From UHGV virus genome UHGV-0070112: a stretch of DNA of 32,150 nucleotides, one strand, 5' to 3'. Numbering within the stretch: position 1 is the stretch's first letter; every line of letters begins with the position of its first letter. The notes under the pieces were generated by a model. That model was not told the DNA's origin, made no database searches, and saw only the letters and a list, made by a program, of their open reading frames with translations. The position numbers and the translations under genes are program-made. This document shows, in pieces, positions 6,657 to 29,324 of this stretch. Origin of the DNA: a virus.

Positions 6657-7242
6657 CGCGCGGCCGCGACGTTAGAACCATGGGTATTTTAACTACATAA
6701 GGTTATGAAGATCTTCGGAAAAAATGAGATGATGGTTTGTTTGGTTATTTAATGAGCGAAAACAGCCAAAATCCCCATGCAGGGATGATAAAAAACGTCA
6801 TTGTGTAGACGACTGCAGGCTGTAATTTATTCAAATTAAATTTCCTTAGTAGGGCTCTATGTGTCCTACAACATCCAACCTACCTAAAGACATTGATTGA
6901 TACAAGAGGAAAAACACTACTTTTTTATCAAATTGGGATCGGTTTTGTTTCCGATGGCGCGGCATTATACGGAGATAACCCAAGTTATCAACAGAAATTG
7001 CCAGCATATGTACGCAAAATGTGCTGTTTCTAATTTTGAGATGGTTGTGGTGCCGGGTGCCTCCCGGTGAGCATGCCCCAACAGACATTACTCGCGCGGT
7101 ATTCACAGGGCTTTCGCTCTATTAGTTGGACGCCCCTCCGCATAGGGGGATTCACCACACGGATAATTTAGGATGTAGTCATAGGCGGCGTCAATAACTG
7201 ACACTCTGTCAAAGGCACCATTACGATGCCTTTTGCACAGTG

Positions 7243-7977: not shown

Positions 7978-8373
7978 TGGTTGATCCGCTTACTGATACG
8001 GAGCGACCAACCTAAGTTGTCGCAGATTCAAATTGTGGCCCTGCCTTTAAGTCACTTTGCGCGCAGCTGGGACATGTAGTTTTCGCATCGTGATCGGGAT
8101 TCGCTTCAGGCGCTGGCCCCGCAGCCATATAAGTGCCGGTTACGGTTCCGGCCAGGCCTCTTCCTCAACGGGTTATTCTCCATACGGATTTCCGTTTGTT
8201 GGTCGTTCCTGCGATCTCAATTTTCCGGTTACGTTTATCCGGTGGCTTACGCCCGGTTTAGCCCTAAGGTAAGGGATTTGGTTGTGGTGGCAGGCGCCCA
8301 TCTCCTGCTTAACGTCAATCAACGCTTGCACATCGCTACGTTATGGGCCGGGATCAACCGATATTTTCGCTCG

Positions 8374-8476
8374 CCACAACGGAAAGAGCACTGGTAATCT
8401 GTAGCGGGTATTTACTCGCGCACGCCGTTTTGACGTGCGGCCCATTTCAGCATGGTCAATGATCTTACCTGTTGTG
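8374..8476 (-). other. Paired-motif element, late-leader copy
   Basis: Minus strand reads CACAACAGGTAAGATCATTG ... ~80 nt ... CCAGTGCTCTTTCCGTTGTGG; the two arms are imperfect reverse complements. A second copy is at 23361-23475 on the plus strand. No credible ORF in 7978-8538. Confidence 0.3.
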
Positions 8477-8538
8477 CGCTCCGTTTCGTGGAGCAGACGC
8501 CGCCGGAATCGCACCGGCAGAATCATCACATTGGTATA

Positions 8539-8570
8539 TGGTGCTGGTTGACGGAATCGAACCGCCGTAG
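8539..8570 (-). tRNA. tRNA 3' segment (T-arm, acceptor 3' strand, CCA)
   Basis: Minus strand ctac-GGCGG-TTCGATT-CCGTC-AACCAGC-A-CCA. Acceptor 3' strand AACCAGC is the exact complement of the 5' strand GCTGGTT at 9037-9043. Begins 1 nt after the HNH stop codon. Confidence 0.45.
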
Positions 8571-8990
8571 CTATTTCGTTATTTCCAATAAACCTGCGTG
8601 GACTTTTCTGTGGCAATTAGCACAGAGGACAATACACTTCCTCACTTCATCTTTAAGTCGATTTCGTGATCTGCCACATAGATTGGAAGGGTCGCCTTCT
8701 TTGCTGCCGGCGTTGTCATGATGAAGATCCAGAACAACAGGTTCTTTTTCTCCGCAATTTTGGCATCCTATGAAGCGTTTATATCGAGCTAGAAACTGAC
8801 GGTTTGAACTTGTTTTTCTCGTTCTCGTTGACTTTATTAGCTGTCGCCTTGACTCATTGGTTGCATAACTCAAAGCATCTCTTTCCTTAGCGCACGCCTT
8901 ACAGATATTTTGTAGGCCATCGCTCTTTCCTTTGTTTTTATGGAAATCGGAAGCAGATTTTAACTCTTTGCATTTGCTACAAATTTTCAT
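8571..8990 (-). CDS. HNH endonuclease with N-terminal Cys-rich motif
   Basis: 139 aa; N-terminal CSKCKELK...CKAC and C-terminal HNH motif (LDLHHDN...CANCHRKVH). AT-rich by eye. AGGA RBS. Lies between the two halves of the tRNA-like gene. Confidence 0.8.
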   Translation of the reverse strand: MKICSKCKELKSASDFHKNKGKSDGLQNICKACAKERDALSYATNESRRQLIKSTRTRKTSSNRQFLARYKRFIGCQNCGEKEPVVLDLHHDNAGSKEGDPSNLCGRSRNRLKDEVRKCIVLCANCHRKVHAGLLEITK

Positions 8991-9005
8991 CAGTATCCTA
9001 GGTCA

Positions 9006-9043
9006 TTACAAGGCAGGCGCTCTACCAGCTGAGCTAAACCAGC
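9006..9043 (-). tRNA. tRNA-Thr(UGU)-like 5' half (acceptor, D-arm, anticodon stem 5' strand and loop)
   Basis: Minus strand GCTGGTT-TA-GCTC-AGCTGGTA-GAGC-G-CCTGC-CTTGTAA with U33 and anticodon UGU. The expected 3' anticodon-stem strand GCAGG is absent; the sequence runs into the HNH RBS. Overlaps the last codons of the N6 methyltransferase. Confidence 0.45.
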
Positions 9044-10083
9044 AAATTGCGCATTTCACTGACCGTCTGTTCAAATCTCTCGGTTTCCAGTTCGACACCT
9101 AGTCCCCTTCGCCCGAGAAGAGCAGCCTGCTTGAGCGTTGAGCCTGATCCAAAAAAGAAATCAGCTACAACATCACCCGGGCGGCTACTCGCTGTGATTA
9201 TCTGCTCCAGCATATCCGCAGGCTTTTCACATGGGTGTTTACCTGGATAAAACTGAACAGGCTTATGAGTCCAGACGTCGGTATATGGCACCGTGACCGA
9301 TACGCTGAATGGTCGCCGTAAACGGTAATATTCCTGCTGGAGTTCAGAATATTTTCGGCTTAACGATTGCCAGGTAGCGACAAGCTGGTGGTGAGGTTTT
9401 CCCAGTTCGTTGCGTGAGTGCTTATCCATGGCGATTTTTTGAAACAAAGCCTGCAACTTTAAATAATCGGCTTCGTTCGGTAGCTGCCACTGACTAAGGC
9501 CAAACCAGTGGGAAACCATATTTTTCTTACCTGTGGCTTCTGCAATCTGAGCGGACGTCACGCCAAGAGATTCCCGTGCATCACGGAAGTAAGAAATTAA
9601 AGGCGTCATGACGTGTTGCTTTAACTCATTACACTTTGCGGCATATCCATCGTCTTTGGGCCTGTATGGCCCCTGATAATGGTCGGCAAAAATGATACGT
9701 TCCGTCGCCGGGAAATATGACCGGAGGCTTTCTTTATTGCATCCGTTCCAGCGTCCCGAAGGTTTAGCCCAGATGATATGGTTGAGCAGGTTAAACCGCT
9801 CTCTCACCAACAGCTCAATATCCGCTGCCAGGCGGTGCCCACAGAACAGATACATGCTGCCGGCAGGTTTTAACACTCGCCAGAACTGTGCCAGACAGCT
9901 ATCCAGCCAACGTAAATAGTCCTCGTCCCCCTTCCATTGGTTATCCCAGCCGTTTGGCTTCACCTTAAAGTAAGGCGGATCGGTAACAATAAGATCAATG
10001 GAGTTATCGGGTAGCGATGGGAGGTATTGCAGGCAATCAGCATTGATTAATTCAATACTGGATGTTTTTACAGTATTTTTCAT
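9034..10083 (-). CDS. DNA N6-adenine methyltransferase, beta class
   Basis: 349 aa; motif IV IVTDPPYF near the N-terminus and motif I FFFGSGSTL near the C-terminus, the beta-class order. No adjacent restriction endonuclease other than the small HNH ORF downstream. Confidence 0.8.
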   Translation of the reverse strand: MKNTVKTSSIELINADCLQYLPSLPDNSIDLIVTDPPYFKVKPNGWDNQWKGDEDYLRWLDSCLAQFWRVLKPAGSMYLFCGHRLAADIELLVRERFNLLNHIIWAKPSGRWNGCNKESLRSYFPATERIIFADHYQGPYRPKDDGYAAKCNELKQHVMTPLISYFRDARESLGVTSAQIAEATGKKNMVSHWFGLSQWQLPNEADYLKLQALFQKIAMDKHSRNELGKPHHQLVATWQSLSRKYSELQQEYYRLRRPFSVSVTVPYTDVWTHKPVQFYPGKHPCEKPADMLEQIITASSRPGDVVADFFFGSGSTLKQAALLGRRGLGVELETERFEQTVSEMRNLLV

Positions 10084-10232
10084 AGATCAGTAAGCGTAAC
10101 TCTGATAGGCTCACTTTGCTTTTGCGCTAAAGCAGTGGGCCGTGGTTAGCTTGTGACCTGAAAGCATGAGCTGATGGCTGGCCGGGTGCTACAACACCCA
10201 CCAGCCGCCCATTTTCACAGCAAAAGCCCCCA

Positions 10233-10424
10233 TTACTGGAGGCGCTTATAACATCCGAACTGATAATCAGATAACCCCGCCATTACCAGCTGCATAAGTA
10301 TGAGCTGGCAGCGTTCGCGGCTCAGGTGAGAACTCTGTGCAATCTCTCCAGCAGTAGCTGGTTTGTCACTTAGCTCATTCAAAACAGCCTTGGCTGTTTC
10401 CGTCATATCTTGCTGATTTAGCAT
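10233..10424 (-). CDS. Small winged-helix-like protein
   Basis: 63-aa ORF with helix-turn-helix-like core (ATAGEIAQSSHLSRERCQLILMQLVMAGL). First gene after the candidate late-operon terminator, upstream of the N6 methyltransferase. Confidence 0.45.
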   Translation of the reverse strand: MLNQQDMTETAKAVLNELSDKPATAGEIAQSSHLSRERCQLILMQLVMAGLSDYQFGCYKRLQ

Positions 10425-10503
10425 GTCTTTTACCTAAAAAAGTGGCGTGACATACAGATAACTCTCGTTACTGAGTACAGCAAGAAACAATCGCGATAAA
10501 CGT

Positions 10504-10524
10504 AAAAAAACCCGCCAGAGCGAG
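10504..10524 (-). terminator. Candidate tR'-like intrinsic terminator
   Basis: Minus strand CUCGC-UCUG-GCGGG followed by seven U. Sits ~120 nt downstream of a promoter-like TTGTCA/TTGTAA region in the 10525-10642 intergenic gap. Confidence 0.35.
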
Positions 10525-10642
10525 TTTTTAATGTTTAAGCTGTGTGTCGAAGTGACCACTCTTAACACGTTACATAACAAAATGCGGACCGCGTTAGTGA
10601 TTTTTTTATTTCCTCACGCTAAGGTAGGTTTACAAGAACGGA

Positions 10643-11527
10643 TTGACAAAAATTGAGGCAACCTTGGAAAGTTCGACCACCTTTAAAATCTTCTACGATG
10701 CTGAAGATGATGAGTTAGCACAGCATAAAATTGACGCGAAAACTTTAAGTCTTTCAATTGGCTCAATGGCAGAATTGATTTCCAAAGCAGATAAAAATCT
10801 TAATGACGGGCAAGAAACAGTCAAATTAATGGTTACAACACCTGCTGCTGAAGGCTCAATTGGTGTTGTTTATTCAATGATGGAGTTAGTCCCTAATGCT
10901 ATAAACGTGGCTAAAGTTATCGGTTTAACGGCAGCAGGAGGGGCTTTTATTGGTGCTCCCGCGCTTTCATTGATCCGGCAGTTAGGGAGTAAAAGAGTTA
11001 TATCGATTACTAAAAGACCCCAGACGCATGAAGCCGTCCTTGAGCTTGAAGATGGGGAAATTGTTTGTAACGATGCTGTTGCAAAATTAGTTACTGATCC
11101 TGAAATACGTCAAGCTCTGGTTAACGTCGTAAGGGCTCCTCTTGATGGTAAAACCAATCCTGTTTTTAAAATCCTTGACCAGGAAGGTAACGAGGTCTTG
11201 CGGCTTGAGAATGAGGAAACAGAAGAGGTAAAACCTTTACCTCGTGGTACACTTCTTGAAAAAGAAGTATCAATCGATGAGGTGAATGTTCGATTCGTCC
11301 AAGTGAACTTTGAAGGAAACAAAGGATGGAGAATTGATTACCTTGGGGATGAACATTCAGTTAGCCTAGATGACAACGTGTTCCTTTCTCAGGTCCAAGC
11401 TGCAACAGTGCAATTCTCCAAAGAAGATCTTTACGTTGTTGATCTAGAAACTATTAAAACGTACACAGCCCGTGGGGTAACGCATCGTTACACCATAAAG
11501 AAGGTTAAGCGTAAGCGCCCAGCGTAA
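10643..11527 (+). CDS. Hypothetical protein A of AT-rich three-gene cassette
   Basis: 294 aa, no recognisable catalytic motif. TTG start (first in-frame ATG is 40 codons in); AGGTAGG upstream. Visibly AT-rich. Convergent with Q. Confidence 0.45.
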   Translation: MTKIEATLESSTTFKIFYDAEDDELAQHKIDAKTLSLSIGSMAELISKADKNLNDGQETVKLMVTTPAAEGSIGVVYSMMELVPNAINVAKVIGLTAAGGAFIGAPALSLIRQLGSKRVISITKRPQTHEAVLELEDGEIVCNDAVAKLVTDPEIRQALVNVVRAPLDGKTNPVFKILDQEGNEVLRLENEETEEVKPLPRGTLLEKEVSIDEVNVRFVQVNFEGNKGWRIDYLGDEHSVSLDDNVFLSQVQAATVQFSKEDLYVVDLETIKTYTARGVTHRYTIKKVKRKRPA

Positions 11528-11533
11528 GTAGGA

Positions 11534-11800
11534 GTGATGGTAAACCAGCAACTTTTTGAACTAGCGATGTGGGTAGGGGTGATAATGGCTTCCCCCCTGC
11601 TTTTTCGTTTTTCATATGCTGCATCTGCCTTGTTATGGCGGAGGGTTTTCCCTACTCGTAAATTTGAGTTTTCGTATAAGGATGAAAATTCTCAAACCAT
11701 ACGCTCTGTAACAATCCTTATCCCAAGAAATAGAAGCAAAACCCTTGTTCAGTTGATAGATGAAGCCCGAAAGAACGGGGACAGAAACAGTGGCAAATGA
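11534..11800 (+). CDS. Hypothetical small membrane protein B of cassette
   Basis: 88 aa with one N-terminal TM helix (LFELAMWVGVIMASPLLF). Starts 7 nt after the gene A stop with AGGAG just upstream. Confidence 0.4.
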   Translation: MMVNQQLFELAMWVGVIMASPLLFRFSYAASALLWRRVFPTRKFEFSYKDENSQTIRSVTILIPRNRSKTLVQLIDEARKNGDRNSGK

Positions 11801-12206
11801 TAAGAAAACCACCAGTCCAGTGTCATCGACACTTTCAACTGGGGGCATAGGCATAATTCTATCTGGTTTGGTTACCTATTTTGTGCCAGAAACCAAGTCT
11901 GGACTAGCTAAGCTATTGTATTTATTCATCCCTTTTGTTTCAGCTATTTTGACCTACCTTATGGCTTGGGTTATAGCCCGGCATGGACTTGAATCTCCTG
12001 AAGATGCAGCCAAACGGGCAAACTTCTTGAGAGATTTAGCCACAATTGATGTTGAACTTGCTAATGATAACAACTCTGAAGAATTCAAGGAAAAGTTAAG
12101 AAAATCAAGAGAGAAAACTGTAGAGATGATGATTAACATTGGAAAGGAAAGCACTTTTACTTTCTTTGATAAAAGTAATGAACAATCAGCAAAGGGCAGC
12201 GATTAA
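11760..12206 (+). CDS. Hypothetical membrane protein C of cassette
   Basis: 148 aa with two TM helices (GGIGIILSGLVTYFV, LLYLFIPFVSAILTYLMAWVI) then a charged helical tail. Overlaps gene B by 41 nt in another frame; start may be GTG at 11790. Confidence 0.4.
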   Translation: MKPERTGTETVANDKKTTSPVSSTLSTGGIGIILSGLVTYFVPETKSGLAKLLYLFIPFVSAILTYLMAWVIARHGLESPEDAAKRANFLRDLATIDVELANDNNSEEFKEKLRKSREKTVEMMINIGKESTFTFFDKSNEQSAKGSD

Positions 12207-12221
12207 CTGCCCTCTTATAAC

Positions 12222-12587
12222 TTAACAATCTAGATCAAGACGGATGTCTAACATTGATAGACATCCGTCAATAAAACCTTCAGCCATCTGTATCTCGATC
12301 CGGATCAACTTCTCATCTTTCTTTTGCGCCTTAGCTATTTTACGTTTCGAGATACCGTACAGGTAATGAGCCACGAGCAAACTGTGCTCGTATGGCTTCT
12401 TTTCTCGAAGCCTTGCCAAACAGCCTTCTATGATCAGCGCATCATCATCAGTACAGCACAAGCGCGTTTTTCCGCCCTGCGGAAGAAGCCCCTTAAAACC
12501 TGCTGCAATGTGGGAATAATCAATACCGGAGCTGTCAGCTGCCGCCCAGCCTCCCCATAAATCTAAAACCTTTTGCATGTCACGCAT
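12222..12587 (-). CDS. Phage antitermination protein Q (QuuD-like)
   Basis: 121 aa; motifs LDLWGGWAA, FKGLL, CCTDDDALIIEGCLARL match the small Q-family antiterminators of lambdoid prophages as I recall them. Confidence 0.7.
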   Translation of the reverse strand: MRDMQKVLDLWGGWAAADSSGIDYSHIAAGFKGLLPQGGKTRLCCTDDDALIIEGCLARLREKKPYEHSLLVAHYLYGISKRKIAKAQKKDEKLIRIEIQMAEGFIDGCLSMLDIRLDLDC

Positions 12588-12604
12588 TCATATTCTCCAT
12601 ACAC

Positions 12605-13660
12605 TTATGCTTTTACAATGACGCCGATACCCATTACCCGATCCAGAAAACGAGCCCACAGCTCTAACTGAGTGCCATATTTCTTTTCGAACTCTGATGT
12701 ATTGGCGTGTAATTCATCGTGATGCACTCTGCACAGTGGTATCACGAAGAGATCATGGGCCTTGGTGCCAGTTCCCCCCAGACCATTCCCTATTATATGG
12801 TGTGGATCGTCTGATGGTTGCCTACAGCATTCACATGGCTGAGTTTTAACCCAACGTGTGTAAACTTCGCAGGTCCAGCGCCGGCGCTTTGGGCGGCGCA
12901 TAAATGATTCGGGGCTGTTCGGATCGACACTAAGCCTCAGAATGGGTTTACTTTCACTCTGAGTTTGCTCAATGAGTACACTGGCTTCCGCCAGGTCTAT
13001 GCCCTCGACAAGATCCTGAAGGATTTCACCTGCAGCAAATGACGGGACAATATCGCTATCCTTATAAACGGACAGGAAAGGTTCCTCAGGCAGTCTTAAG
13101 GCCTGTTGCGCCATCGTCTCGGTTATTGCGTCAGCAATGCCGGATTTCACAGCCCACCAGCAGAGCTCCGCCATCGATAATTCGCGCTCCTTATTGTATC
13201 CAAGGCTGATCTGCACCCTTTCAATCACCCACTGAACCAGATTCTGATAAGCCAGCTCTGACAACATTTCGGTGGCCTGCTCACGTAATTCATTATCACA
13301 ATGCCAGCAGACAACCATGGCGCCAGGCGGATGCCGCATAGTCACTAATTCATGGTGGTGATAGTGGGAATGCGGGTACTGGCACTCTCTGACATGTCGT
13401 AGAAGCCAGGCCTCAAGAGCGTTTATTCCACCAGCTGCGTTAATAACCCTCTCATCCCTCATGAAAAAACGCAGAATGTCCATTTCGGCAAGCGGCTGAC
13501 GTGCATCGGCGATCCGCCCAGTAGGCAGTGTTTTCATTTTCTCTGGCTGACGCTCTATCAGGACACGGCCGCCGGTAAAGAGAGACATCAATTCGCGGCC
13601 TGGTTTGAAAAGAACAACGCCCAGGCGCGGCACAATTTCCGGAGTAAGCAATGCTCGCAC
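12605..13660 (-). CDS. Phage protein with C-terminal HNH-like Cys/His motif (DUF968-like)
   Basis: 351 aa; C-terminal CECCRQPSDDPHHIIGNGLGGTGTKAHDLFVIPLCRVHHDELH. Family name is from recollection. Confidence 0.5.
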   Translation of the reverse strand: MRALLTPEIVPRLGVVLFKPGRELMSLFTGGRVLIERQPEKMKTLPTGRIADARQPLAEMDILRFFMRDERVINAAGGINALEAWLLRHVRECQYPHSHYHHHELVTMRHPPGAMVVCWHCDNELREQATEMLSELAYQNLVQWVIERVQISLGYNKERELSMAELCWWAVKSGIADAITETMAQQALRLPEEPFLSVYKDSDIVPSFAAGEILQDLVEGIDLAEASVLIEQTQSESKPILRLSVDPNSPESFMRRPKRRRWTCEVYTRWVKTQPCECCRQPSDDPHHIIGNGLGGTGTKAHDLFVIPLCRVHHDELHANTSEFEKKYGTQLELWARFLDRVMGIGVIVKA

Positions 13661-13668
13661 AATCCCCC

Positions 13669-14199
13669 CTAAACAGTCAGATCTTTAAGCTTCTGCACGG
13701 CTTTACCAACTTCAGCCATAGCATCTACGAACTCGTCAAACTTCCTGCTGGCCATTCCATATGCCTGGAGAATTTCCAACTTCAAGGGATCGAGCTGTTT
13801 CTTAATTTCTGCACGATCCCCTGCTTTTTTCTCCGCTTCCTCTGCCGCTTTGATCAAGGCGTCGGCCTGTTTACGTAATGCTTCCGGAGTTACTTCGAGC
13901 TGTTTATTCATTTTGCATTCCATCGTCGGCTGAGGAGGTGTCATTACAGGCGCCACAGATTTGTGACCATATTTCGGGTGGTGCAAGGTAGTAGACCTTC
14001 CATCATCTATCACGCAGAGCATCCCGCTTTCCCGGATTATTTCGATCAGGGTCTCTTTGTCTTTGCGATTGAGCCCACTGTATGCCGCCACTTTGTGCGT
14101 CAGGTGGGTTAGCGTTGCGCCTTCTGGTTGCCTCTCTACAAAACGCTTTACCCTGGAAAGCACTGGTTGCAGGTGTGGGGGAGTCATTCTCATGTTCAC
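13669..14199 (-). CDS. Hypothetical protein
   Basis: 176-aa ORF in the nin-like block; helical, Lys/Glu-rich C-terminal half. Confidence 0.45.
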   Translation of the reverse strand: MNMRMTPPHLQPVLSRVKRFVERQPEGATLTHLTHKVAAYSGLNRKDKETLIEIIRESGMLCVIDDGRSTTLHHPKYGHKSVAPVMTPPQPTMECKMNKQLEVTPEALRKQADALIKAAEEAEKKAGDRAEIKKQLDPLKLEILQAYGMASRKFDEFVDAMAEVGKAVQKLKDLTV

Positions 14200-14202
14200 C
14201 CC

Positions 14203-15045
14203 TTACTGCGTGACAACGCCAATGAGCTTTAAAAGCTCAGGAAATTTCGATTCGAAGAAGTGCGGTTGCGTCTCACGTGGATTTGCCGGGCTGGTGATGT
14301 TTTTACCGTACAGACAACCTTTTGCCGTAACAGACCAGAATCTTTTCACGCCATTGATACCCGTTCGGCTGCGGCGCTCCTTCTGCTCGACTATGCCGTG
14401 ACCAGCCATAAGGTGATAAGCCTGGTTCGCGGTCATTCTGATGTTGTTAGCTTTAAGCAAAGCGCTAAGAGACAGCGTTGGTCTGCTGGAACCATCCTGC
14501 GCGCCAGCTGGTGCATCAATGGCATATGAAGGCATTAAATCAGGCAGCCCTGCTACCTGCTGAAGCTTCTGATATGCCCCGAGCTTTGACGAATTAGAGA
14601 GATTGAGCATTTTGGCTGCAGATTCCAGGAGGATTATGCCGGCTTGAATGCGATCGGTATTGACGGTTGCAGCCCCAGCAGTGTGGAGCGCGTCAAACGT
14701 TCTGATGACCTTCAGATTAAAAACAGCGCTGATCCACATCGCGTAGGCATACACCAACTCACGGCAAACATAGGTACCTTGCTCATTTCCGCCGCGGATG
14801 ACACTTACAGGTTCTGAAATATCCGAGTTGCTATTTTGCAACTCGCCTATCAATTGCGCAGTTTGTTCGTTACGGAGCCAGAATGCAGGCTTATGGCGGT
14901 CAAGGGAGCCGGAAGCACGATGGAGATCGTTTAGGCAATAACGACCAAGGACATCACGACGAACAGAAATACCATCAATAACAAAAAAATTGTGATTATT
15001 GGATGCAGCAGCACCCATGACGTGGTTAGTCATAGCTTTCTCCAT
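14203..15045 (-). CDS. KilA-N domain protein (antirepressor-like)
   Basis: 280 aa; N-terminal FFVIDGISVRRDVLGRYCLNDLHRASG...KPAFWLRNEQT resembles the KilA-N domain. Confidence 0.55.
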   Translation of the reverse strand: MEKAMTNHVMGAAASNNHNFFVIDGISVRRDVLGRYCLNDLHRASGSLDRHKPAFWLRNEQTAQLIGELQNSNSDISEPVSVIRGGNEQGTYVCRELVYAYAMWISAVFNLKVIRTFDALHTAGAATVNTDRIQAGIILLESAAKMLNLSNSSKLGAYQKLQQVAGLPDLMPSYAIDAPAGAQDGSSRPTLSLSALLKANNIRMTANQAYHLMAGHGIVEQKERRSRTGINGVKRFWSVTAKGCLYGKNITSPANPRETQPHFFESKFPELLKLIGVVTQ

Positions 15046-15121
15046 ACATTTTTATGTGACGAAGGGCCTGCACGCCCGTTTCGTTTGCACTCTTTGACAT
15101 TACTGCCATATCGGCGAACTT

Positions 15122-15520
15122 TCAACCCACAGCTGTACATACATCCACCACTTTTTGATAGCAGACTATGGTGATTTCTACCCTGCCTCCTTTGACGATT
15201 TCACCCCATTCAATAGCCATACGCTTAACCTGGTTGTCGTCCTCCCAGATACCGGCATAAGTCAAAGCATCAAGAAGTGCCTTGTTGTAATTGTCCAGGT
15301 CACGCCGGCGATAGTCTGGCGGATAGAGAATAATTTCTACAGCTGCTGGCGCGGTAGATGGTTTTGGTATTGCACGCAGTTGCTCAATGATCGCTGACCG
15401 TACTGCATGTTTGAATTTACGGCCGGCTGCGCTGACAAGGTGTTTGCCTTTTGCGGGCCCCTTATTTGGGGACCGCCAGTAGGTGTTCACGCTGGGTGGG
15501 AATGGAAGAATAAATTTCAT
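15122..15520 (-). CDS. rusA: Holliday junction resolvase RusA
   Basis: 132 aa; PPSVNTYW and RRRDLDNYNKALLDALT are characteristic RusA motifs. Confidence 0.8.
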   Translation of the reverse strand: MKFILPFPPSVNTYWRSPNKGPAKGKHLVSAAGRKFKHAVRSAIIEQLRAIPKPSTAPAAVEIILYPPDYRRRDLDNYNKALLDALTYAGIWEDDNQVKRMAIEWGEIVKGGRVEITIVCYQKVVDVCTAVG

Positions 15521-15993
15521 TCTGCCTCCAGCACTATTTTCAACTCAAACGGAACATCTCCTCCGCAATAGCAGAGCGGGCCAAGGTCAGACATGAGGCT
15601 CCACAGGGTCATTGACGTATAGCCATTTTCGTCTGTTATCGGGGGCGAAAAGTCCCCGAAGATCCTCGGGTGCTGGATTCGATTCTGCTCGTGTTGTTTT
15701 TCCAAATGTCTGAGGGAAACTTCATTAAGTTTCACTTTTACGATGCTGTTGAGATTGACCGATATTTCTCTGGCCAACAGCGAAGGGGTGATACTGATAC
15801 CGCGAGAAACCCCGCGGGTGATTGTGATAACACCCTTTTTCTCCAACGCCTTGAGGTGTGTTGCTGCTGCATTGGGGGACCGGCACCCCAGCATGCCGGT
15901 CAGTTCGTAAGTTGTAGGCGGAAAACCATGTTTACGCTGATATTCGATCAGGAGGTCCAGGACCTCCTGCTGCCTTAAGGTCAAGGAAGTCAT
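15517..15993 (-). CDS. LexA-like N-terminal DNA-binding domain protein without S24 peptidase domain
   Basis: Start revised to ATG 15993 (MTSLTLRQQEVLDLLIEYQRKHGFPPTTYELTGMLGCRSPNAAATHLKALEKKGVI...), closely resembling the LexA winged-helix domain. C-terminal ~80 aa unrecognised. ATG overlaps the C5-MTase stop (ATGA); its own stop overlaps the rusA start. Confidence 0.6.
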   Translation of the reverse strand: MTSLTLRQQEVLDLLIEYQRKHGFPPTTYELTGMLGCRSPNAAATHLKALEKKGVITITRGVSRGISITPSLLAREISVNLNSIVKVKLNEVSLRHLEKQHEQNRIQHPRIFGDFSPPITDENGYTSMTLWSLMSDLGPLCYCGGDVPFELKIVLEAE

Positions 15994-17960
15994 GCTGCCT
16001 GCTCCTCTCTGTTCACGCACATTTCGGGTAAATTGGCGCGAACCAGCGCTTCGGCGAACGGCGGCGGGACGGCATTTCCACAGCGCGCAACCTGCTTATC
16101 TTTCGCGTATTTCACGCCGCGGTAATCCTGGTCAATGATGTACCACTCGGGGAAGCCCTGCGCCCGGTAAAGTTCGTGTGGCTGCAGCATGCGCATGCCG
16201 ATATCAACGATGCGGTAAGTCACTCCGCCGATTTCCACCAGACCGGTGCATTCCTCTCCGCAGTATTCCTGCAGGAACGACAGCACCTGCTGCGCTCGCT
16301 CTTCGTCATAGTCCTCGACTGCCAGAGTCGTTTTAACCTCGCCTACGTGCTGGCCACCAGCAGTGATAGTCGGCATCGGCTCGTCAGTGCGCTGGCCATC
16401 GCGGCATGTACCACGGAGCTTGATCAGATGAGACGTAACCATTGCGGCATCAGCCTTTGTCGTCATGGTTTGCAATGGCTCGCTAACGTCACGTGGCCTG
16501 CTCTGCCCAGCGCGACCGCCAACACCAACAATCTGAGCAGTAACCAGCGCATGATGATCGACGGTAGTAACTGAATGAGCTGGTTCATCCAAGTCAATAC
16601 CGGCGCCCTGATAATTCCCGCCATAGTGTTTCGCCAGGAATGCGGATACCAGTTGCGATTTACCGCCGCCGCCCGCGGTGATTGTTGCGCTAGGTTCGTC
16701 GGCACGGTGTCCGATGCTGGCGCCGAACTGCCGGGCGATAACCGGAGCGACGACACAGGCGCGCGATTCTTTCATGATGGTGTGAGCGGGTTTATCGAGC
16801 GGGCGTGGTTTAGCCTGGTACTCGCTGCCGCCATTGCCAGCCAGGAACGGCGCCAGCTCTGCTTCAACAATACCCAGAGCGTGACCATTCCCGCCCGGGC
16901 GTTTTGCGGTACCGGCCGTCACCGTCGGCAACGGATCGGTGACTTCCTGCCCGGTAGCTCCGGTTCGGAATTTTGTCAGATGAGGTACCGCAATTGCGTA
17001 GCCGTGGGTTTTCGTAATCGTCTGTAGCGGATCGTCCAGCGCCTGTCCCCGGAAACAGTCGTATTTGCCGCGTGTCGTTGTGTGATTGCACTTCACGATG
17101 AATGGCGAAGCGCTTTCGATAACAAAGCGCTGAATGCCGCGGGCAATCCGTTTTAGCGTATTCTCTGCCAGTGACTTTTTGCGACCGAAGATGCTCGGCG
17201 CGGGGATTGACCAGTCTATGCATTCCGCAGCTGTACGCCACGGCTCCAGCTGGCCCGCCAGCACGGCGGCAGACTTCGGATCCCCGTGCGTGGCTTCCGG
17301 CCAGACTATCGGTTTCCCGTCCCGGCGCATCACCATGAAGAACCGCTTACGGATGGTCGGCGCGCCATAATCGCAGGCGCGCAGCTCGCGAAAATCGACG
17401 ACATAACCAAGCCCGGCAATTAAGCGCTTGGCCTGCTCGCTATCCGGTGAAAACTCCAGAAACTCGCAACACTCCACCAGTGCAGGATGATCTGCTGGAA
17501 TACCGGTGGTAAGCATCCCGACAAATGCATTGAAAGTTTCACCGATGCGTGCCGGATCCGGTCGCATTTCTGCCGCGAGTAACGGACCCCACGTCTTAAA
17601 CTCTTCGACGTTTTCCAGCATCATGACTCGCGGGCCAACATCCAGCGCCCAACGAATGACGATCCATGCCAGCCCTCGAATAGCTTTCTCTACTGGTTTA
17701 GCACCTTTCGCTTTAGAAAAGTGACGACAGTCAGGCGAGAACCATGCCAGGCCGACAGGCTTGCCACTGGTAGCGGCTAATGGGGATACATCAAACACAC
17801 TTTCGCAATAGTGAAGCGTGTCGGGATGGTTAGTGCGGTGCATAGCAACGGCGTTAACATCGTGGTTAATCGCGATATCAACGCTACGCCCTATCGCCAG
17901 CTCAATACCTGTACTGGCGCCACCGCCACCAGCAAAATTATCGACAATAATCTCACGCAT
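15990..17960 (-). CDS. DNA cytosine-5 methyltransferase with a long, repeat-containing variable region
   Basis: 656 aa; motif I FAGGGGAS, catalytic-Cys region FSPDCRHFS, ENV motif MLENVEEF, C-terminal motif-X-like CGNAVPPPFAEAL. About 450 aa between ENV and motif X carry reiterated segments (LPTVTAG, SATITAGGGG, MPTITAGG, LQTMTT, LQTITKT). Confidence 0.85.
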   Translation of the reverse strand: MREIIVDNFAGGGGASTGIELAIGRSVDIAINHDVNAVAMHRTNHPDTLHYCESVFDVSPLAATSGKPVGLAWFSPDCRHFSKAKGAKPVEKAIRGLAWIVIRWALDVGPRVMMLENVEEFKTWGPLLAAEMRPDPARIGETFNAFVGMLTTGIPADHPALVECCEFLEFSPDSEQAKRLIAGLGYVVDFRELRACDYGAPTIRKRFFMVMRRDGKPIVWPEATHGDPKSAAVLAGQLEPWRTAAECIDWSIPAPSIFGRKKSLAENTLKRIARGIQRFVIESASPFIVKCNHTTTRGKYDCFRGQALDDPLQTITKTHGYAIAVPHLTKFRTGATGQEVTDPLPTVTAGTAKRPGGNGHALGIVEAELAPFLAGNGGSEYQAKPRPLDKPAHTIMKESRACVVAPVIARQFGASIGHRADEPSATITAGGGGKSQLVSAFLAKHYGGNYQGAGIDLDEPAHSVTTVDHHALVTAQIVGVGGRAGQSRPRDVSEPLQTMTTKADAAMVTSHLIKLRGTCRDGQRTDEPMPTITAGGQHVGEVKTTLAVEDYDEERAQQVLSFLQEYCGEECTGLVEIGGVTYRIVDIGMRMLQPHELYRAQGFPEWYIIDQDYRGVKYAKDKQVARCGNAVPPPFAEALVRANLPEMCVNREEQAA

Positions 17961-18906
17961 GAGCGGTCCCCCTCATGCTGCCGACCAGCCCACCAGCAAG
18001 GGTGATGATTTCGCTGGTGGGCACGCGCTCCAGCCACAACTGGTTAATATGGGCCTTCAGCTTGTTCTGCTGGGAGAACTCCAGATCCTCTGCGCCTTGT
18101 ACCTGTCCAAAGACGAGTCCAACTTCCAGTGGCCAGATCCGGGATTCAGGCTCAGCCAATGATGCAACAGCATCGGGGATGATCACTTCAGGAGACTGAA
18201 CTGGCGAAACTGGTGACAGGAATTTTCCTGCAGCAAACTCAGCCAGCGCCATACTTGCGCGCCCTTTTGCTTCCAGCTCAACGCGATCGATATAGCTAAA
18301 ATGTTCACCGCGCCAGGTCTTATCAAATACCGCAATGGCCCCGGCAAAGAATGCGCTGGTGGGCTTCTGCTTTTCGTCGGCCGGCACAAACCACGTTGGG
18401 AGATCGAATCCAATACGACCACGAATAAACATGATGTGATCGGCATATTCCGGCCACCATGTTTCACTTGTTGCTGACTTCACGAGGTAAATGTAACGAC
18501 CACCCTTTTCACGCTGCTCGGCGGTATAGTTCATAATATGAGTCATGCCAGTGATGGCTTGTTTTTCATGGTACTGCGAGCGGCTGTACGGCGGATTAGC
18601 AAAGGCCGCTCCTCCGAGTTCTACCAGACGACCAGACCAGTCCTGCGTCAGCGCATTATCTTCAGCGGTATACCATGCCGGGCATTTTGTATTGCTGTCG
18701 TCTGCAAACAGGTCCAGCACCAGCGGGCCAAACAAAGCGTTAACGCCCCAGAACAGCAGATCAGGGGTACGCCATTGATCCCCGACTTCTTTCAAATAAT
18801 GCGAACTTCGCTGGCGCTGTTCCTCAAGTGCCAGGCAATAAGGGCTGACGCTTTTTGTTAAATTTTGCTCTTCTGCGGTCATAGCTTCTTGTACTTCCTG
18901 ACTCAT
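17953..18906 (-). CDS. Phage Dam-type DNA N6-adenine methyltransferase
   Basis: 317 aa; DLFADDSNTKCPAWYTAED and AFANPPYS motifs of the phage Dam family. GGGGA RBS. Has an extra ~100-aa C-terminal region. Confidence 0.8.
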   Translation of the reverse strand: MSQEVQEAMTAEEQNLTKSVSPYCLALEEQRQRSSHYLKEVGDQWRTPDLLFWGVNALFGPLVLDLFADDSNTKCPAWYTAEDNALTQDWSGRLVELGGAAFANPPYSRSQYHEKQAITGMTHIMNYTAEQREKGGRYIYLVKSATSETWWPEYADHIMFIRGRIGFDLPTWFVPADEKQKPTSAFFAGAIAVFDKTWRGEHFSYIDRVELEAKGRASMALAEFAAGKFLSPVSPVQSPEVIIPDAVASLAEPESRIWPLEVGLVFGQVQGAEDLEFSQQNKLKAHINQLWLERVPTSEIITLAGGLVGSMRGTAHA

Positions 18907-19084
18907 AGTTTTCCCCTGCGCTGATCAGCATTAACAAGTGCTCTCAGTAACCAGTAACGGCGATCAAAGCTGAAAAGGTCATTTCTGAGGAGTGCATATT
19001 TTCTGCGAAAAATAACGTCGTGCTGCCACCAGTAACGCCAGTGATGCAAACGCACAAGGCGCCGGAGACTTATCAAAATCCTCT

Positions 19085-19543
19085 TCAATCGGAGCACAAG
19101 TCACCTCCGCAGTAATTTCCGGCCAGATAGCATGACCCGGCGGAATCATTCATGTTTCTGGCGTTTCGAACAGAAGCATTCTTAAGACGCAGGTATCGCT
19201 CTCTTGCTTTAGCCGTACAGTTGCTGTCACAAAGTTGCTGCCATACCGTCGCCGCACGGCGGTAATAGCGTTTCTCTTCCAGCTTTTTGGCTGTCGCTTC
19301 AAGGGCAAGAATCTCCCCCGAAAGCCCACCAGGCAGGTACTCTTCAATATCGATGGATCCCGCTACGAAGTAGATAAACCCACCAGTAACTTCAACGCTG
19401 GCAAGTTCCCCGTCGTAGTAAAGGCGATGAACAGCGCTCTTCACTGTTACCGGTTTGGTTCCAGGAAATGCCGCAGTGATATCGCGCAGCATTTTGCCGG
19501 GATTCTTCTCAATAAATTCAAAGATCGACTTGGCTATGTTCAT
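19085..19543 (-). CDS. Hypothetical protein with PerC-like C-terminal region
   Basis: 152 aa; C-terminal KKLEEKRYYRRAATVWQQLC...RERYLRLKNA resembles PerC-family regulators. ATG overlaps the stop of the upstream replication gene. Confidence 0.4.
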   Translation of the reverse strand: MNIAKSIFEFIEKNPGKMLRDITAAFPGTKPVTVKSAVHRLYYDGELASVEVTGGFIYFVAGSIDIEEYLPGGLSGEILALEATAKKLEEKRYYRRAATVWQQLCDSNCTAKARERYLRLKNASVRNARNMNDSAGSCYLAGNYCGGDLCSD

Positions 19544-20451
19544 CCCCGGAACCCCCGTGGAATCGTGGTTTGTACTGGACTAATTGAATTAACATCCCGC
19601 GGTCTGGTTTTGTCCCACGACTCCCTTGGCGGGCGGCCTTTAGCATCCCAACGGATAGCGCTTTGCAGATATCCCTCGAATTTTTTAGGGCCGAAAAGTG
19701 TCTCGGGTCGCATGTACTGGTATTGCTCGTCGTTGCCATGCCAGTGCTCATGCTTGATGTCAATTACCAGTTTCAAGTCGCTAACGGTATGACCTTCGCG
19801 GAGGCGGGCGCGAATGTTCTCCAGCGAGGTCTTAGATTTCTGGTAACGGGAACCGCTGACCAGATTCAGGTGTGCCAGAACTTCGATCGCGTTATCGGTA
19901 ATAACAACTTCAGGATCCGGCTTATCGTCGGGTTCCGCAGGAGCCCGACAAGAAGGTTTTTTAGATGACGGATCTAATGACGGATCTAATGACGGATCGC
20001 CTTCAACCATTGAGGGGTCCTCCCGCAATATTTGAGGGGGTACAGACCCATTATTTGAGGCATCAGAATTTGACCCCTCAAATTTTGAACCCTCAAATTC
20101 TGAGGCATCAAATTTTGATTGTTCACGTGGCGTTGCGTAGAAAATTTTTGCTTCAGCTGCTGCACGTTCCAGCATGTCAACATTGAGTTTATAAACGTTC
20201 GAATTATTCTTTCCGCCCACGCGCCGTTCCTGCTTCTTCAGCCAGCCTTTAGCCTGAAGCTTTTTGATAGCGCTGCGGACAGTATTCTCGCTCTTGGCGC
20301 CGATCTGTCGCTGAATAGTGGTTACCGCTGGCCATGACACACCTTCGTCATTACTGAAATCTGCCAGGCGAGCCATGACCGCTATTTCTGAGATTATCAG
20401 CCCTTTGAAAGCGCATGCTTCCCATACGAGGCCGTGTAATTTACTGCTCAT
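19540..20451 (-). CDS. Replication initiation protein (O-like) with conserved phage C-terminal domain
   Basis: 303 aa; N-terminal HTH-like region, central low-complexity linker encoded by the iteron repeats, C-terminal VLAHLNLVSGSRYQ...LKLVIDIKHEHWHG typical of phage replication proteins. Confidence 0.7.
   Translation of the reverse strand: MSSKLHGLVWEACAFKGLIISEIAVMARLADFSNDEGVSWPAVTTIQRQIGAKSENTVRSAIKKLQAKGWLKKQERRVGGKNNSNVYKLNVDMLERAAAEAKIFYATPREQSKFDASEFEGSKFEGSNSDASNNGSVPPQILREDPSMVEGDPSLDPSLDPSSKKPSCRAPAEPDDKPDPEVVITDNAIEVLAHLNLVSGSRYQKSKTSLENIRARLREGHTVSDLKLVIDIKHEHWHGNDEQYQYMRPETLFGPKKFEGYLQSAIRWDAKGRPPRESWDKTRPRDVNSISPVQTTIPRGFRG
19965..20115. repeat. Iteron-like repeats (candidate origin) inside the replication gene
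   Basis: Direct repeats gacggatctaat x3 (19965-20000) followed by at least six copies of TTTGAGGG / CCCTCAAA-type units in both orientations (20008-20115). Confidence 0.5.
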
Positions 20452-21682: not shown

Positions 21683-22309
21683 ATGGAAACTGTCGGACAA
21701 CGAATAAAATCGCTTAGGCGAATCACCAGAACCTCACAAAAAGAGCTTGGGAAGTTTTGTGGGGTCAGTGATGTCGCAGTTGGGTATTGGGAAAAGGACG
21801 TAAACGTCCCAGGAGGGGAATCTCTTTCCAAACTAGCAAAATTCTTCAATACATCAATTGATTACATACTTTTTGGCACTGAGTTTGAGGGAAACTTAAT
21901 AACTAAGATGCGAAAAGTTCCCGTGATATCGTGGGTGCAAGCAGGATTATTCACTGAATCAAAGCCTGAAGATGTCTTGCATGATGCCGAAAAATGGGTG
22001 GAAACGTCTCTCCGCATCAGCGATAACTCGTTTGCCCTTGAAGTAAAGGGAGACTCAATGACAAATCCTAATGGACTGCCCACGATTCCTGAAGGCGCAA
22101 CGGTCATCGTTGATCCAGACATTGAGCCAATTCATGGAAAGATTGTAGTTGCACGAATAGATGGGACCAACGAGGCCACGGTCAAAAAACTGGTTGTAGA
22201 CGGTCCGCAAAAATTTCTTGTCCCGCTAAATCCCCGTTATCCTAACATCGCCATCAATGGTAACTGCGTCATTATTGGTGTGGTTAAAGGCGTTCAATAC
22301 GAGCTCTGA
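21683..22309 (+). CDS. cI: CI-type repressor (HTH plus S24 LexA-like peptidase domain)
   Basis: 208 aa; N-terminal HTH (TSQKELGKFCGVSDVAVGYWEK), C-terminal S24 domain with catalytic-serine motif KGDSM and downstream Lys. Confidence 0.85.
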   Translation: METVGQRIKSLRRITRTSQKELGKFCGVSDVAVGYWEKDVNVPGGESLSKLAKFFNTSIDYILFGTEFEGNLITKMRKVPVISWVQAGLFTESKPEDVLHDAEKWVETSLRISDNSFALEVKGDSMTNPNGLPTIPEGATVIVDPDIEPIHGKIVVARIDGTNEATVKKLVVDGPQKFLVPLNPRYPNIAINGNCVIIGVVKGVQYEL

Positions 22310-22327
22310 TCTAAGCTAATCTCCCTT

Positions 22328-22358
22328 CGACACCAAGCTAAGAAAAGTTTGGTGTTTT
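22328..22358 (+). terminator. Intrinsic terminator after cI
   Basis: Stem ACACCAA / TTGGTGT with 12-nt loop, followed by TTTTT. Confidence 0.5.
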
Positions 22359-22369
22359 TTCTTGACGAC

Positions 22370-22398
22370 AAAACTAAGTTAAGTTAGATTTTCATCTA
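22370..22398 (+). promoter_or_regulatory. Candidate PL promoter with embedded left operator
   Basis: TTGACG, 17-bp spacer, TAGATT. The spacer holds CTAAGttaaGTTAG, the same half-site family as the cro-cI operators. Confidence 0.4.
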
Positions 22399-22494
22399 TC
22401 AACAGCGAAGAGGCAGGACGCCCACGAAGTAGCCGCCCGGGGCATATGAAGTCCGGGATGATTCGCTGACAGATAAACCAAATAGGAACAGATC

Positions 22495-22728
22495 ATGGCA
22501 AGCAAAGGCATTGAAAACCTTATCAAGGACGCATTAGCAAACGGCTGTCATGTAGTCCGTAAAGCGCATCGCTTCGAGGTAAGCAAGAAAGGCCAAAAAT
22601 CAATCACTCTTATTATTTGTGAAGATGGCACAGCTTACCGGGGAGATATTGACCTAACGATCGCCATAGCCATTCGCACTCAAAAAGAAATGCGCAGCAT
22701 CCTCGGCCTGCCGGCCAAGGCAAGTTAA
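22495..22728 (+). CDS. Hypothetical 77-aa protein, first ORF after candidate PL
   Basis: AGGA RBS 8 nt upstream; no recognisable motif; not Arg-rich. Sits in the slot lambda uses for rexAB. Confidence 0.4.
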   Translation: MASKGIENLIKDALANGCHVVRKAHRFEVSKKGQKSITLIICEDGTAYRGDIDLTIAIAIRTQKEMRSILGLPAKAS

Positions 22729-23360
22729 TTACCACAGGTATCTTCGGGAGGGGTTGCGAAGCTGGATTGACCACCAGCAACAGAAACTCACCCGACATAC
22801 AGCAGCCGTTTAACCCACGGCGTCGGGGGTCCAGTAGACCTGGATTAATACTGTAGGGGTTGTGCCGGTTGGTCGCCGGCGCCCCGCCCGAAGATACCTG
22901 AACGAACATGGCGAAGCCGACAGCGTTGAAGGCGATTTTCTCGGTTTGCGCGCTAAACAATAGCGGGGGTGAAATCGGGGCGGAGAAGCAGAATCCGCGA
23001 TGTCGGGACTTGATACTTCCGGCCATACCAACAAGCCGAATGATCGCGTAACGATCCTTTGCATCTGCCCCGGCGAGGTGGCGCCGCCGGACCGGGGTAG
23101 ATGAATCGTACACAACATGAAAGCGCATTCCATCTTCATCCGTCGTGGGGACTGGTTTGTAACTGAAGGAGTGCGCTTCCAGTTGTGAACGGCAATATTC
23201 ACGACCGTTGTATGGCACATGCAGCGTTAGCAGCCCGGATGGTTCCCTTGAAGTTCCATGCGCTATCCGGACAACTGGAATGTGCAAGCCAAGTGTTTCA
23301 GGCACGACGTGCGCCCCACCAGCGCGGCGAAAAGGTGTGACGCCCGGGAAGAGTCCGGGA

Positions 23361-23475
23361 CACAACAGGTAAGAGCATTCCCGCCACACGAGGCTGAAAC
23401 CCAATCGCCATGTGGATGCGCCGAAAAGCTACGACGGGGCGTTGGTAGAAGATCGGAGTGCTCTCTCCGTTGTGG
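23361..23475 (+). other. Paired-motif element, early-left copy
   Basis: CACAACAGGTAAGAGCATT ... ~77 nt ... GGAGTGCTCTCTCCGTTGTGG on the plus strand; same arm sequences as 8374-8476. Inside a GC-rich ORF-poor stretch. Confidence 0.3.
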
Positions 23476-23616
23476 TAATTGCGGCTATGCGCACGTGGCG
23501 AGCCAACCCGTTCATGGAATGCGTTTCCGGGCAGTGTACGTCGCCGGTTATGGCTTAACCCGGCAGGTGGAGGCACCACCGCCACAACCTAGTTAACTGT
23601 GCTGTGTGTAGTCTTG

Positions 23617-23687
23617 GCGGTTATCCAGTTTTCCACTATCCAAAGGAGGAAGAGGATAACGTTCTGATGGATAACCGCCCTTTTTAC
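23617..23687 (+). promoter_or_regulatory. 11-bp perfect inverted repeat enclosing the RBS and start of a small ORF
   Basis: GGCGGTTATCC (23617-23627) and GGATAACCGCC (23669-23679) bracket AAGGAGGAAGAGGA and the ATG at 23667; followed by CTTTTTAC. Confidence 0.4.
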
Positions 23688-23828
23688 ACAATACACAAGA
23701 GCATCACCGGGCGACGGGCTCATTACCCAATCCACCCGGGCGGATTTGCAGCCGCAGGTGCTCTTCTGTGTTGTGTACGGAGAAATTCCCGGCGGTGGCA
23801 GCCGCCTTTCGAGAGGGTAAAACCATGA
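23667..23828 (+). CDS. Hypothetical 53-aa Arg-rich protein
   Basis: MDNRPFYTIHKSITGRRAHYPIHPGGFAAAGALLCCVRRNSRRWQPPFERVKP. GAGGA RBS 10 nt upstream; stop overlaps the next gene's ATG (ATGA). Could be spurious in GC-rich DNA. Confidence 0.3.
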   Translation: MDNRPFYTIHKSITGRRAHYPIHPGGFAAAGALLCCVRRNSRRWQPPFERVKP

Positions 23829-24196
23829 GTAATGATCGCATGACAGTCGTGCCCGATTTCCTGGGCGAACTGGACGCCGGCGTATTCATGAACAAGATTG
23901 CGGCGGCTCTGAATACCACCGCGCTCGGCGTTCTGAACAACGGCAACAAAGGCAAAGTAGTCCTGACCTTTGATTTTGAGCGTATGGGCAACTCTGTTGA
24001 AGAGAAGCGCGTCAAGATTAAGCACAAGCTGAACTACAGCACCCCAACTCCCCGCGGAAAAGCGTCGGAAGAGGACACCACCGAAACACCAATGTGGGTC
24101 AATAAAGGCGGCAAGCTCACCATCCTGCAGGAGGATCAAGGGCAACTCTTCGGTATCACCGGCACGGTGGACGGAAAGCTTAAAGCGGCTCAGTGA
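23825..24196 (+). CDS. Hypothetical early-left protein
   Basis: Start revised to ATG 23825 (MSNDRMTVVPDFLGE...) with GAGGG RBS; 123 aa. Confidence 0.5.
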   Translation: MSNDRMTVVPDFLGELDAGVFMNKIAAALNTTALGVLNNGNKGKVVLTFDFERMGNSVEEKRVKIKHKLNYSTPTPRGKASEEDTTETPMWVNKGGKLTILQEDQGQLFGITGTVDGKLKAAQ

Positions 24197-24252
24197 TCCG
24201 CACGCACAAATTCACTGATACCACTTCGCTAATCAGTTAATAAGGAATTTTT

Positions 24253-25080: not shown

Positions 25081-25209
25081 TTCAAAGCCTGATTGCTCAG
25101 CCTTAAATCCCCGCAGCTGCGGGGATTTATTGAAGCGTAATCCTGTAATTAATCGCCACCTGGCGAGGGATTCCTACACCCAAAAAACAGCGCTGTGCAG
25201 GCGTAAAGT

Positions 25210-28416: not shown

Positions 28417-28418
28417 AA

Positions 28419-29297: not shown

Positions 29298-29324
29298 TAA
29301 TTTTCCCCGGGTGCAGCCGGGGTA

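Follow-up and report, generated by a model that had tools for sequence, protein, structure and literature searches.

Why should one temperate phage carry three DNA methyltransferases (MTases) of three different families, none of them with an evident restriction enzyme of its own? The question is raised by UHGV virus genome UHGV-0070112, which is a lambdoid Klebsiella prophage; the window referred to below is the whole stretch of its DNA that was analysed (32,150 nucleotides (nt), numbered from the first letter). At a probability of about 0.6, we read the three enzymes as a self-protection set that would be expressed only during lytic growth, in two temporal classes, and that would combine a C5-cytosine enzyme with many targets and an adenine enzyme without sequence specificity. 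The argument turns on the following three genes and on one array of amino acid (aa) modules, which resemble target recognition domains (TRDs).

9034 to 10083, minus strand: beta-class N6-adenine MTase, probable ortholog of M.EcoGII (349 aa; Pfam N6_N4_Mtase, E 1.3e-40)
15990 to 17960, minus strand: C5-cytosine MTase with enlarged variable region (656 aa; Pfam DNA_methylase, E 6.5e-19)
16326 to 17111, minus strand: seven tandem TRD-like modules of the C5 enzyme (aa 284-545; 30-40 aa each)
17953 to 18906, minus strand: phage Dam-type N6-adenine MTase (317 aa; Pfam Dam PF05869, E 9e-43)

All three open reading frames (ORFs) were intact and placed as the first-pass annotation had described them, and an examination for lost catalytic residues found the catalytic and cofactor motifs present in every one. 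The absence of a cognate restriction gene was borne out as well: Pfam scans of about 40 larger ORFs of the window recovered no restriction-endonuclease family. The nuclease-type domains found were RusA, a DUF968/HNHc_6 protein in the nin region, and a weak HNH match beside the small terminase gene; this last ORF (1806-2147, minus strand), a second small ORF with an HNH match, adjoins the small terminase subunit (1163-1627), the usual position of a terminase-associated HNH gene, and is unrelated to the MTases. The MTase load had been called unusually heavy. It is not, because Kp4866-6 (the closest sequenced phage, with 96.7% identity across 75% of positions 8500-19000), Citrobacter phage phiNP, and Escherichia phage Flotzy share the same families. 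All three genes were confirmed in Kp4866-6; phiNP has four MTases, of which the fourth is an adenine MTase; Flotzy was judged from hit tables only (its annotation was not opened), which gave a beta-class match, a C5 match, and an adjacent "PAPS reductase". Note that in some phages the proteins so annotated carry the Dam-type domain. Three solitary MTases in one lambdoid prophage are ordinary as such, and an anti-restriction role, which had been proposed for them, is still the best reading of enzymes that are solitary and apparently catalytically intact. More telling are two properties that were overlooked, namely the multi-module recognition region of the C5 enzyme and the kinship of the beta-class enzyme with M.EcoGII.

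The C5 enzyme has a single complete catalytic core (motifs I, IV, VI, VIII, IX, and X), with FAGGGG at aa 9, P-D-C78, ENV116, RKR204-206, QGFP601, and GNAV628; P76, C78, E116-N117-V118, R204, R206, and G628-N629-V631 were invariant in an alignment of 91 sequences of the family. Motifs I-VIII occupy aa 1-211 and motifs IX-X aa 589-640, and a 377-aa region lies between them. Foldseek recovered the general C5 MTase fold only, the top structural matches (3g7u, DNMT1, M.HhaI, and M.HaeIII) all being C5 MTases. Each of the seven modules in the intervening region is made up of a hydrophobic beta-strand, a G-rich loop, the motif x-(D/E)-P-x-x-T-(I/V/M)-(T/M) (xEPxxT[IVM]T), and a short G/H-rich tail. 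Seven occurrences of the motif were counted where 0.08 would be expected, and none of 20,000 shuffles had more than 3. M.HhaI and M.HaeIII have two DNA-reading loops, the second with a conserved T-L dipeptide, and the sites corresponding to the G-rich loop and the TxT motif form the recognition Loops 1 and 2 of these two enzymes (PMC2790894). As read from sequence, a module is laid out like the recognition core of C5 MTases that have a single specificity. In SPbeta MtbP, too, the variable region holds two motifs of this kind, SPTLTTMGGGH and GEPAFTVNTIDRHG, separated by about 47 aa. The corresponding stretches are presumably NEPAFTVQASG in M.HaeIII and GKGGQGERIYSTRGIAITLSAYGGG in M.HhaI.

The number and order of the modules were then compared across the family, which an exhaustive search defined as 2,497 clusters at 50% identity (E below 1e-30). 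Near-identical homologs from Klebsiella and Raoultella (92-99% identity) differ by clean insertions and deletions of whole modules, and have 6, 7, or 8 of them: a 695-aa homolog with 94% identity to the enzyme of the window has an eighth module after module 4, and a 619-aa homolog with 99% identity is without module 6. Among the best 120 cluster representatives, the order 12345678 was found in 90 and the form of the window (1234678) in 26, the remaining ones having a variant seventh module (three) or the order 123468 (one). The profile count in the best 150 of the 2,497 clusters ranged from 1 to 12 modules per protein. Single-linkage clustering of the modules collapsed all of them to one cluster and was given up; the modules were instead typed against eight reference modules from Klebsiella, with residue shuffling as the control, and 361 of the 964 modules in the same 150 clusters fitted one of the eight types (zero after shuffling). 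Type 1 was nearly always first and type 8 mostly penultimate, and types 2-7 occurred at many positions in varied order, for example T1-T5-T6-T4-T8 in P0126, T5-T2-T6-T4 in P0131, and T5-T6-T4-T2 in P0251. P0126 is a 575-aa family representative with six modules in a different order, and may be the C5 protein of phiNP. Modules within one protein share identity in short stretches only, and the signature of a module type (for example TKFxxGxxG, YGERxGQxPR, KxYGG...DH, and GxGGRxGQS) stays sharp across proteins of 40-63% overall identity. The type-specific conserved residues were located in the G-rich loop and around the TxT motif, the loop residues being rich in R, K, Q, and G. At the level of sequence, the modules are separable units that are added, removed, and recombined in nature. 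Module shuffling together with type-specific loop conservation is the pattern to be expected of independent recognition domains and not of a fixed structural repeat.

Several observations weigh against independent domains, and they were set beside an alternative in which the modules are a structural repeat within one large DNA-binding domain (with one target or relaxed specificity), or are mostly inactive pseudo-domains. The shortest family members inspected by eye retain four or five modules. The module profile scored 1.3 bits on SPbeta MtbP, which is not significant; on the sequences that we take to be those of M.HaeIII and M.HhaI it scored -3.5 for the former (at EPAFTVQASGRQ) and gave no hit for the latter. 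The link between the modules and known recognition domains thus consists of the short motif and the layout, without statistical homology. AlphaFold modelled the core with a predicted local distance difference test score (pLDDT) above 90 and the last module also well, and left modules 1-6 below pLDDT 50; the want of a confident fold there is compatible with the alternative, and by itself the structure prediction would speak neither for nor against independent modules. Inactive pseudo-domains are known in the enzymes of Bacillus phages. However, a closed structural repeat should keep the order of its modules, and here the module types vary in both order and number; whole modules are gained and lost between proteins that are 92-99% identical; and the type-specific conservation falls in the R/K/Q/G-rich loops, not in the strand framework. 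On balance we regard the structural repeat, with its pseudo-domain variant, as unlikely, and we lean, by a small measure, towards a C5 enzyme that is truly multispecific. The widest form of the claim falls a little short of an even chance in our judgment: that the C5 enzyme belongs to a large, apparently undescribed family of proteobacterial phages, in which 3-12 modules from a shared repertoire are shuffled behind one core, each type with its own target, and that the Klebsiella enzyme would methylate at least seven sequences. The literature searched, in which REBASE was not covered, gave no description of multi-module C5 MTases in Gram-negative phages.

At its 3' end the C5 gene overlaps by 31 nt the start of an ORF (15517-16020, minus strand) for a 167-aa protein that has a LexA DNA-binding domain and no peptidase domain. 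In PHROG 29443 the LexA-domain protein is joined to aa 1-155 of the C5 enzyme, which suggests that a deletion has fused both genes in some phages.

The second overlooked property concerns the beta-class enzyme. The Pfam N6_N4_Mtase domain spans aa 29-340, and DPPY at aa 35 is followed by FxGxG (FFGSG) at aa 310, which is the beta-class motif order. Aligned over the full length with two single-residue gaps, the enzyme showed 75-76% identity (264/348) and 87% positives to M.EcoGII, the sequence of which was taken from Table S1 of PMC11551740, a machine-read supplement in which small errors are possible; the central recognition region (aa 115-280) was 72% identical (119/165). Identity was 83% to the reconstructed ancestor Anc291 and 71% to SUPREM, and M.EcoGII itself is 70% identical to SUPREM, i.e. 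as distant from it as the enzyme of the window. Anc291 and SUPREM, both engineered proteins, are active on DNA (Table S3), in a paper that deals with non-site-specific enzymes (PMC11551740). M.EcoGII is a non-specific adenine MTase (349 aa) borne by a prophage of E. coli O104:H4, silent in the lysogen and deleterious if expressed (PMC5778455). By its identities to M.EcoGII, Anc291, and SUPREM, the beta-class enzyme falls inside the sequence space of enzymes reported as non-specific. It looks like a new member of this group and most likely methylates adenine in any sequence context.

The position of the beta-class gene was considered together with three features that precede it on the same strand.

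12222 to 12587, minus strand: Q antiterminator, start of the late region that holds the beta-class gene (Pfam Phage_antitermQ, E 1.7e-50)
10506 to 10529, minus strand: strong terminator-like hairpin with a T run, candidate tR', directly upstream of the winged-helix gene
10233 to 10424, minus strand: winged-helix ORF (63 aa; Pfam matches to DprA_WH and TrmB, both below the cut-off)

From its position downstream of Q, the hairpin is a candidate site of Q-dependent read-through, and a Q-antiterminated late transcript that would start near the hairpin and the winged-helix gene fits this arrangement. The beta-class gene is thus probably a late gene with lytic-only expression, as predicted from its place after Q and the hairpin. 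The small winged-helix gene that had been noticed upstream of it is real (PHROG 331, function unknown, E 1.5e-29). Of 5426 complete E. coli genomes, 3209 had DNA resembling the region of the winged-helix and beta-class genes; the best matches among those listed covered both genes, and phiNP has a small ORF at the equivalent position. By these matches, the winged-helix gene is co-conserved with the beta-class MTase. As for a controller of the kind found in restriction-modification systems, the Pfam search gave winged-helix matches instead of the Xre-type helix-turn-helix (HTH) of a C protein, and upstream of the gene no palindromic C-box was found, the terminator-like hairpin standing there alone. 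The protein is not an Xre-type C protein, and it may act in some other form of regulation. Solved structures were also searched, with no match for the winged-helix protein or the Dam-type enzyme.

Between the winged-helix gene and the beta-class gene, 34-51 nt upstream of the start of the latter, lies a 9-nt near-perfect palindrome at 10117-10134 (TGCTTTTGC/GCTAAAGCA), a possible operator. The record of Kp4866-6, which is flagged UNVERIFIED, contains at 12615-13977 a second, inverted copy of the winged-helix and beta-class genes with 78% identity, which may reflect a chimeric assembly of two prophages.

Could the beta-class enzyme nevertheless have a restriction partner? The HNH ORF next to it had been named as the only nuclease nearby, and it was examined together with two remnants of a tRNA gene.

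9006 to 9043, minus strand: 5' half of tRNA-Thr(UGU) (acceptor, D arm, 5' strand of the anticodon stem, and loop)
8571 to 8990, minus strand: free-standing HNH endonuclease gene (139 aa; PHROG 2255 HNH endonuclease, E 1.6e-37)
8539 to 8566, minus strand: 3' half of tRNA-Thr (T arm, 3' strand of the acceptor, and CCA)

No Pfam match was obtained for the HNH ORF, and the search of solved structures gave a weak generic HNH match to McrA only. The two genes lie side by side on one strand with 43 nt between them, as a conventional restriction-modification pair might, but the endonuclease gene is not co-inherited with the MTase gene. Positions 8301-9038 form a 738-base-pair insertion/deletion relative to Kp4866-6 (96-97% identical), which keeps the MTase and is without the HNH ORF. 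A 139-aa protein of identical sequence is also encoded straight after Q in phages without a beta-class MTase, and in both contexts (the window and L004) the ORF is framed by the two tRNA-Thr halves; intact 76-nt tRNA-Thr(UGU) genes with 90-94% identity are present in other Klebsiella phages. The best E. coli matches to the MTase region end before the HNH ORF, and phiNP has a holin gene straight after its beta-class MTase. The pair was therefore rejected, and we give it hardly any credence.

What the HNH ORF interrupts is the tRNA gene. The 5' half overlaps the last codons of the beta-class MTase, and 10 nt of the tRNA (the 3' strand of the anticodon stem and the variable loop) are swapped for about 440 nt, almost wholly the 420-nt ORF. 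The split gene is missed by ARAGORN in the default mode; the intron mode called a tRNA of 95 nt and an intron of 410 nt, although the anticodon of this call is doubtful and its variable arm long. In view of the call, we leave some chance to an unusual ORF-carrying intron inside the tRNA-Thr gene. For a group I intron, no Rfam intron hit was found around the ORF at E up to 10, and 10 nt of the tRNA are replaced where a clean insertion would be expected, so that this candidate was set aside as unlikely. The simplest reading is that the HNH gene is a mobile, free-standing gene that invaded a phage tRNA-Thr gene.

The Dam-type enzyme matched the NCBIfam equivalog phage_N6A_met (TIGR01712) over the full length of the profile, with 187 bits against a cut-off of 97, and has NPPY at aa 104. 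GATC is the documented target of the PF05869/TIGR01712 family. A C-terminal extension of about 90 aa is shared by few phages (e.g. ST64B), and of 284 phage records only 12 span 80% or more of the length of the enzyme. The gene shares 8 nt at its stop with the start of the C5 gene, and 4 nt at its own start with the ORF before it; these overlaps suggest that the Dam-type and C5 MTases are co-translated in an early-right operon. A Hia5-type model for this gene was rejected: Hia5, Hin1523, and Nme1821 are related to the Dam enzymes of E. coli and T4, which are a different family. Separately, genes that carry the annotation PAPS reductase in SfII, Kati, and several Salmonella phages contain the Dam-type domain, and PHROG 33262, which carries the same annotation, matches the C-terminal part of the Dam-type protein; this hints at a functional link between the Dam-type domain and PAPS reductase.

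Put together, the self-protection reading would run as follows. The overlapping Dam-type and C5 genes would be expressed from the early-right operon, just past the replication genes, and each module would direct the same C5 core to a short sequence of its own, in the manner of the enzymes of Bacillus phages SPR, phi3T, and SPbeta. Non-specific adenine methylation would be toxic if constitutive; from the late operon, beyond Q and the terminator, the relative of M.EcoGII would methylate adenine in any context shortly before packaging. The three MTases would then jointly mask the progeny DNA from many adenine- and cytosine-sensitive restriction systems of the next host. We infer in this scheme the timing of expression, the non-specific adenine activity, and the one specificity per module.

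Three further points tell against it. Identity of the Dam-type enzyme to M.EcoVT2Dam, the sole named family member compared, is only 33%, so that GATC specificity is not to be assumed for it. The promoter scan returned fewer sites than shuffled sequences did, and none clearly upstream of the terminator-like hairpin. The case for all three enzymes is built on sequence analysis.

A different role was weighed as well: the MTases might mainly be epigenetic regulators, acting on phage or host genes in, for example, the lysis-lysogeny decision, packaging, or transcription of the host. Phage cycles can be under the control of solitary MTases, packaging of P1 requires Dam methylation (review PMC12707154), and the C5 gene overlaps the ORF with the LexA DNA-binding domain. 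However, a non-specific adenine MTase and a multi-module C5 enzyme are ill-suited to site-specific regulation, M.EcoGII stays silent in the lysogen and does harm once expressed (PMC5778455), and all three MTase genes lie in what appear to be lytic operons. We consider a mainly epigenetic role improbable, clearly more so than the structural repeat, and retain self-protection as the preferred reading.

The surrounding gene order, from right to left, is as follows.

21683 to 30694, plus strand: repressor, early-left genes, and integrase
19540 to 20451, minus strand: replication protein, followed leftward on the same strand by the Dam-type MTase, the C5 MTase, and the protein with only a LexA DNA-binding domain
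Continuing leftward, minus strand: RusA, KilA-N protein, DUF968 protein, and Q (12222 to 12587)
10643 to 12206, plus strand: low-GC insert between Q and the winged-helix ORF
Last stretch leftward, minus strand: winged-helix ORF, beta-class MTase, HNH ORF, lysis genes, second HNH, and small terminase

The insert at 10643-12206 (GC 41-43%) separates Q from the late genes, and Kp4866-6 has another segment in its place. It encodes a 294-aa LAPAL-family protein (NCBIfam 2.9e-60; PADLOC candidate defence family PDC-S42, 6e-31) and two small ORFs besides, one with a weak, sub-threshold SLATT_4 match, and may be a prophage-borne defence cassette. The early-left operon (25942-29297, plus strand) includes a ParB-HTH protein, a PAPS-reductase-like protein, and a DUF550 'dATP/dGTP pyrophosphohydrolase'. 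At 7010-7189 (minus strand), between a TerB-like ORF and the lysis genes, Rfam matched the gammaproteobacterial small RNA STnc100 (69 bits; gathering score, 47).

If the self-protection reading is true, an adenine MTase without specificity, paired with a cytosine MTase of many modules, would shield one temperate phage almost universally from methylation-sensitive restriction, which bears on the host range of Klebsiella phages and on the design of phage therapy. Independence of the modules would mean that the multispecific principle, so far known from a few Bacillus phages, is widespread and much expanded in Gram-negative phages. The natural 6-, 7-, and 8-module variants would let motifs be assigned to modules directly; such an assignment would address the still unsolved recognition code of the C5 enzymes and might yield building blocks from which methylation tools are engineered. 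Were each module type to have its own target, the family would amount to a combinatorial library, made by nature, from which the DNA reading of C5 MTases could be decoded.

Among the known systems, M.EcoGII and M.EcoGI share with the beta-class enzyme the beta-class motif order, the length of 349 aa, the lambdoid prophage setting, and similarity that includes the recognition region. The gene of the window differs from M.EcoGII in its host (Klebsiella), in 24% of its residues, in that its non-specificity is a prediction, and in that its 3' end abuts the tRNA-Thr gene split by the HNH ORF. The Dam-type enzyme resembles the family of M.EcoVT2Dam (phage VT2-Sakai), which is treated as a Dam homolog in the literature (PMC6602927), in its NPPY motif, the full-length profile match, and its place in the early-right (nin-type) region of a lambdoid phage; it is longer (317 aa vs 175 aa), and in other phages the Dam-type domain is fused to a PAPS-reductase domain. 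For the set as a whole, the gene order of phiNP is comparable, with replication protein O, Dam-type MTase, C5 MTase, Q, small ORF, beta-class MTase, and holin/lysis genes in this order; unlike the window, phiNP encodes the additional adenine MTase and a C5 enzyme of 575 aa, and lacks the HNH/tRNA insertion.

The C5 enzyme is best compared with the multispecific, multi-domain C5 MTases described for temperate phages of Bacillus (review PMC12707154), i.e. M.SPRI, M.Phi3TI, M.SPBetaI/MtbP, and M.H2I. Common to both are one core, short consecutive units between motifs VIII and IX with a PxxT[LIV]xT-type motif in each, natural variants in whole units, and a temperate phage with no restriction enzyme (PMC12707154). 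The enzyme of the window differs in that motif IV is P-D-C rather than P-C, the hosts are proteobacterial, multispecificity is inferred, and the units are shorter (30-40 aa) with no significant similarity to those of SPbeta MtbP. Against the two motif-bearing units seen in SPbeta MtbP, the enzyme found here has seven or, in near-identical homologs, eight, and its family up to 12.

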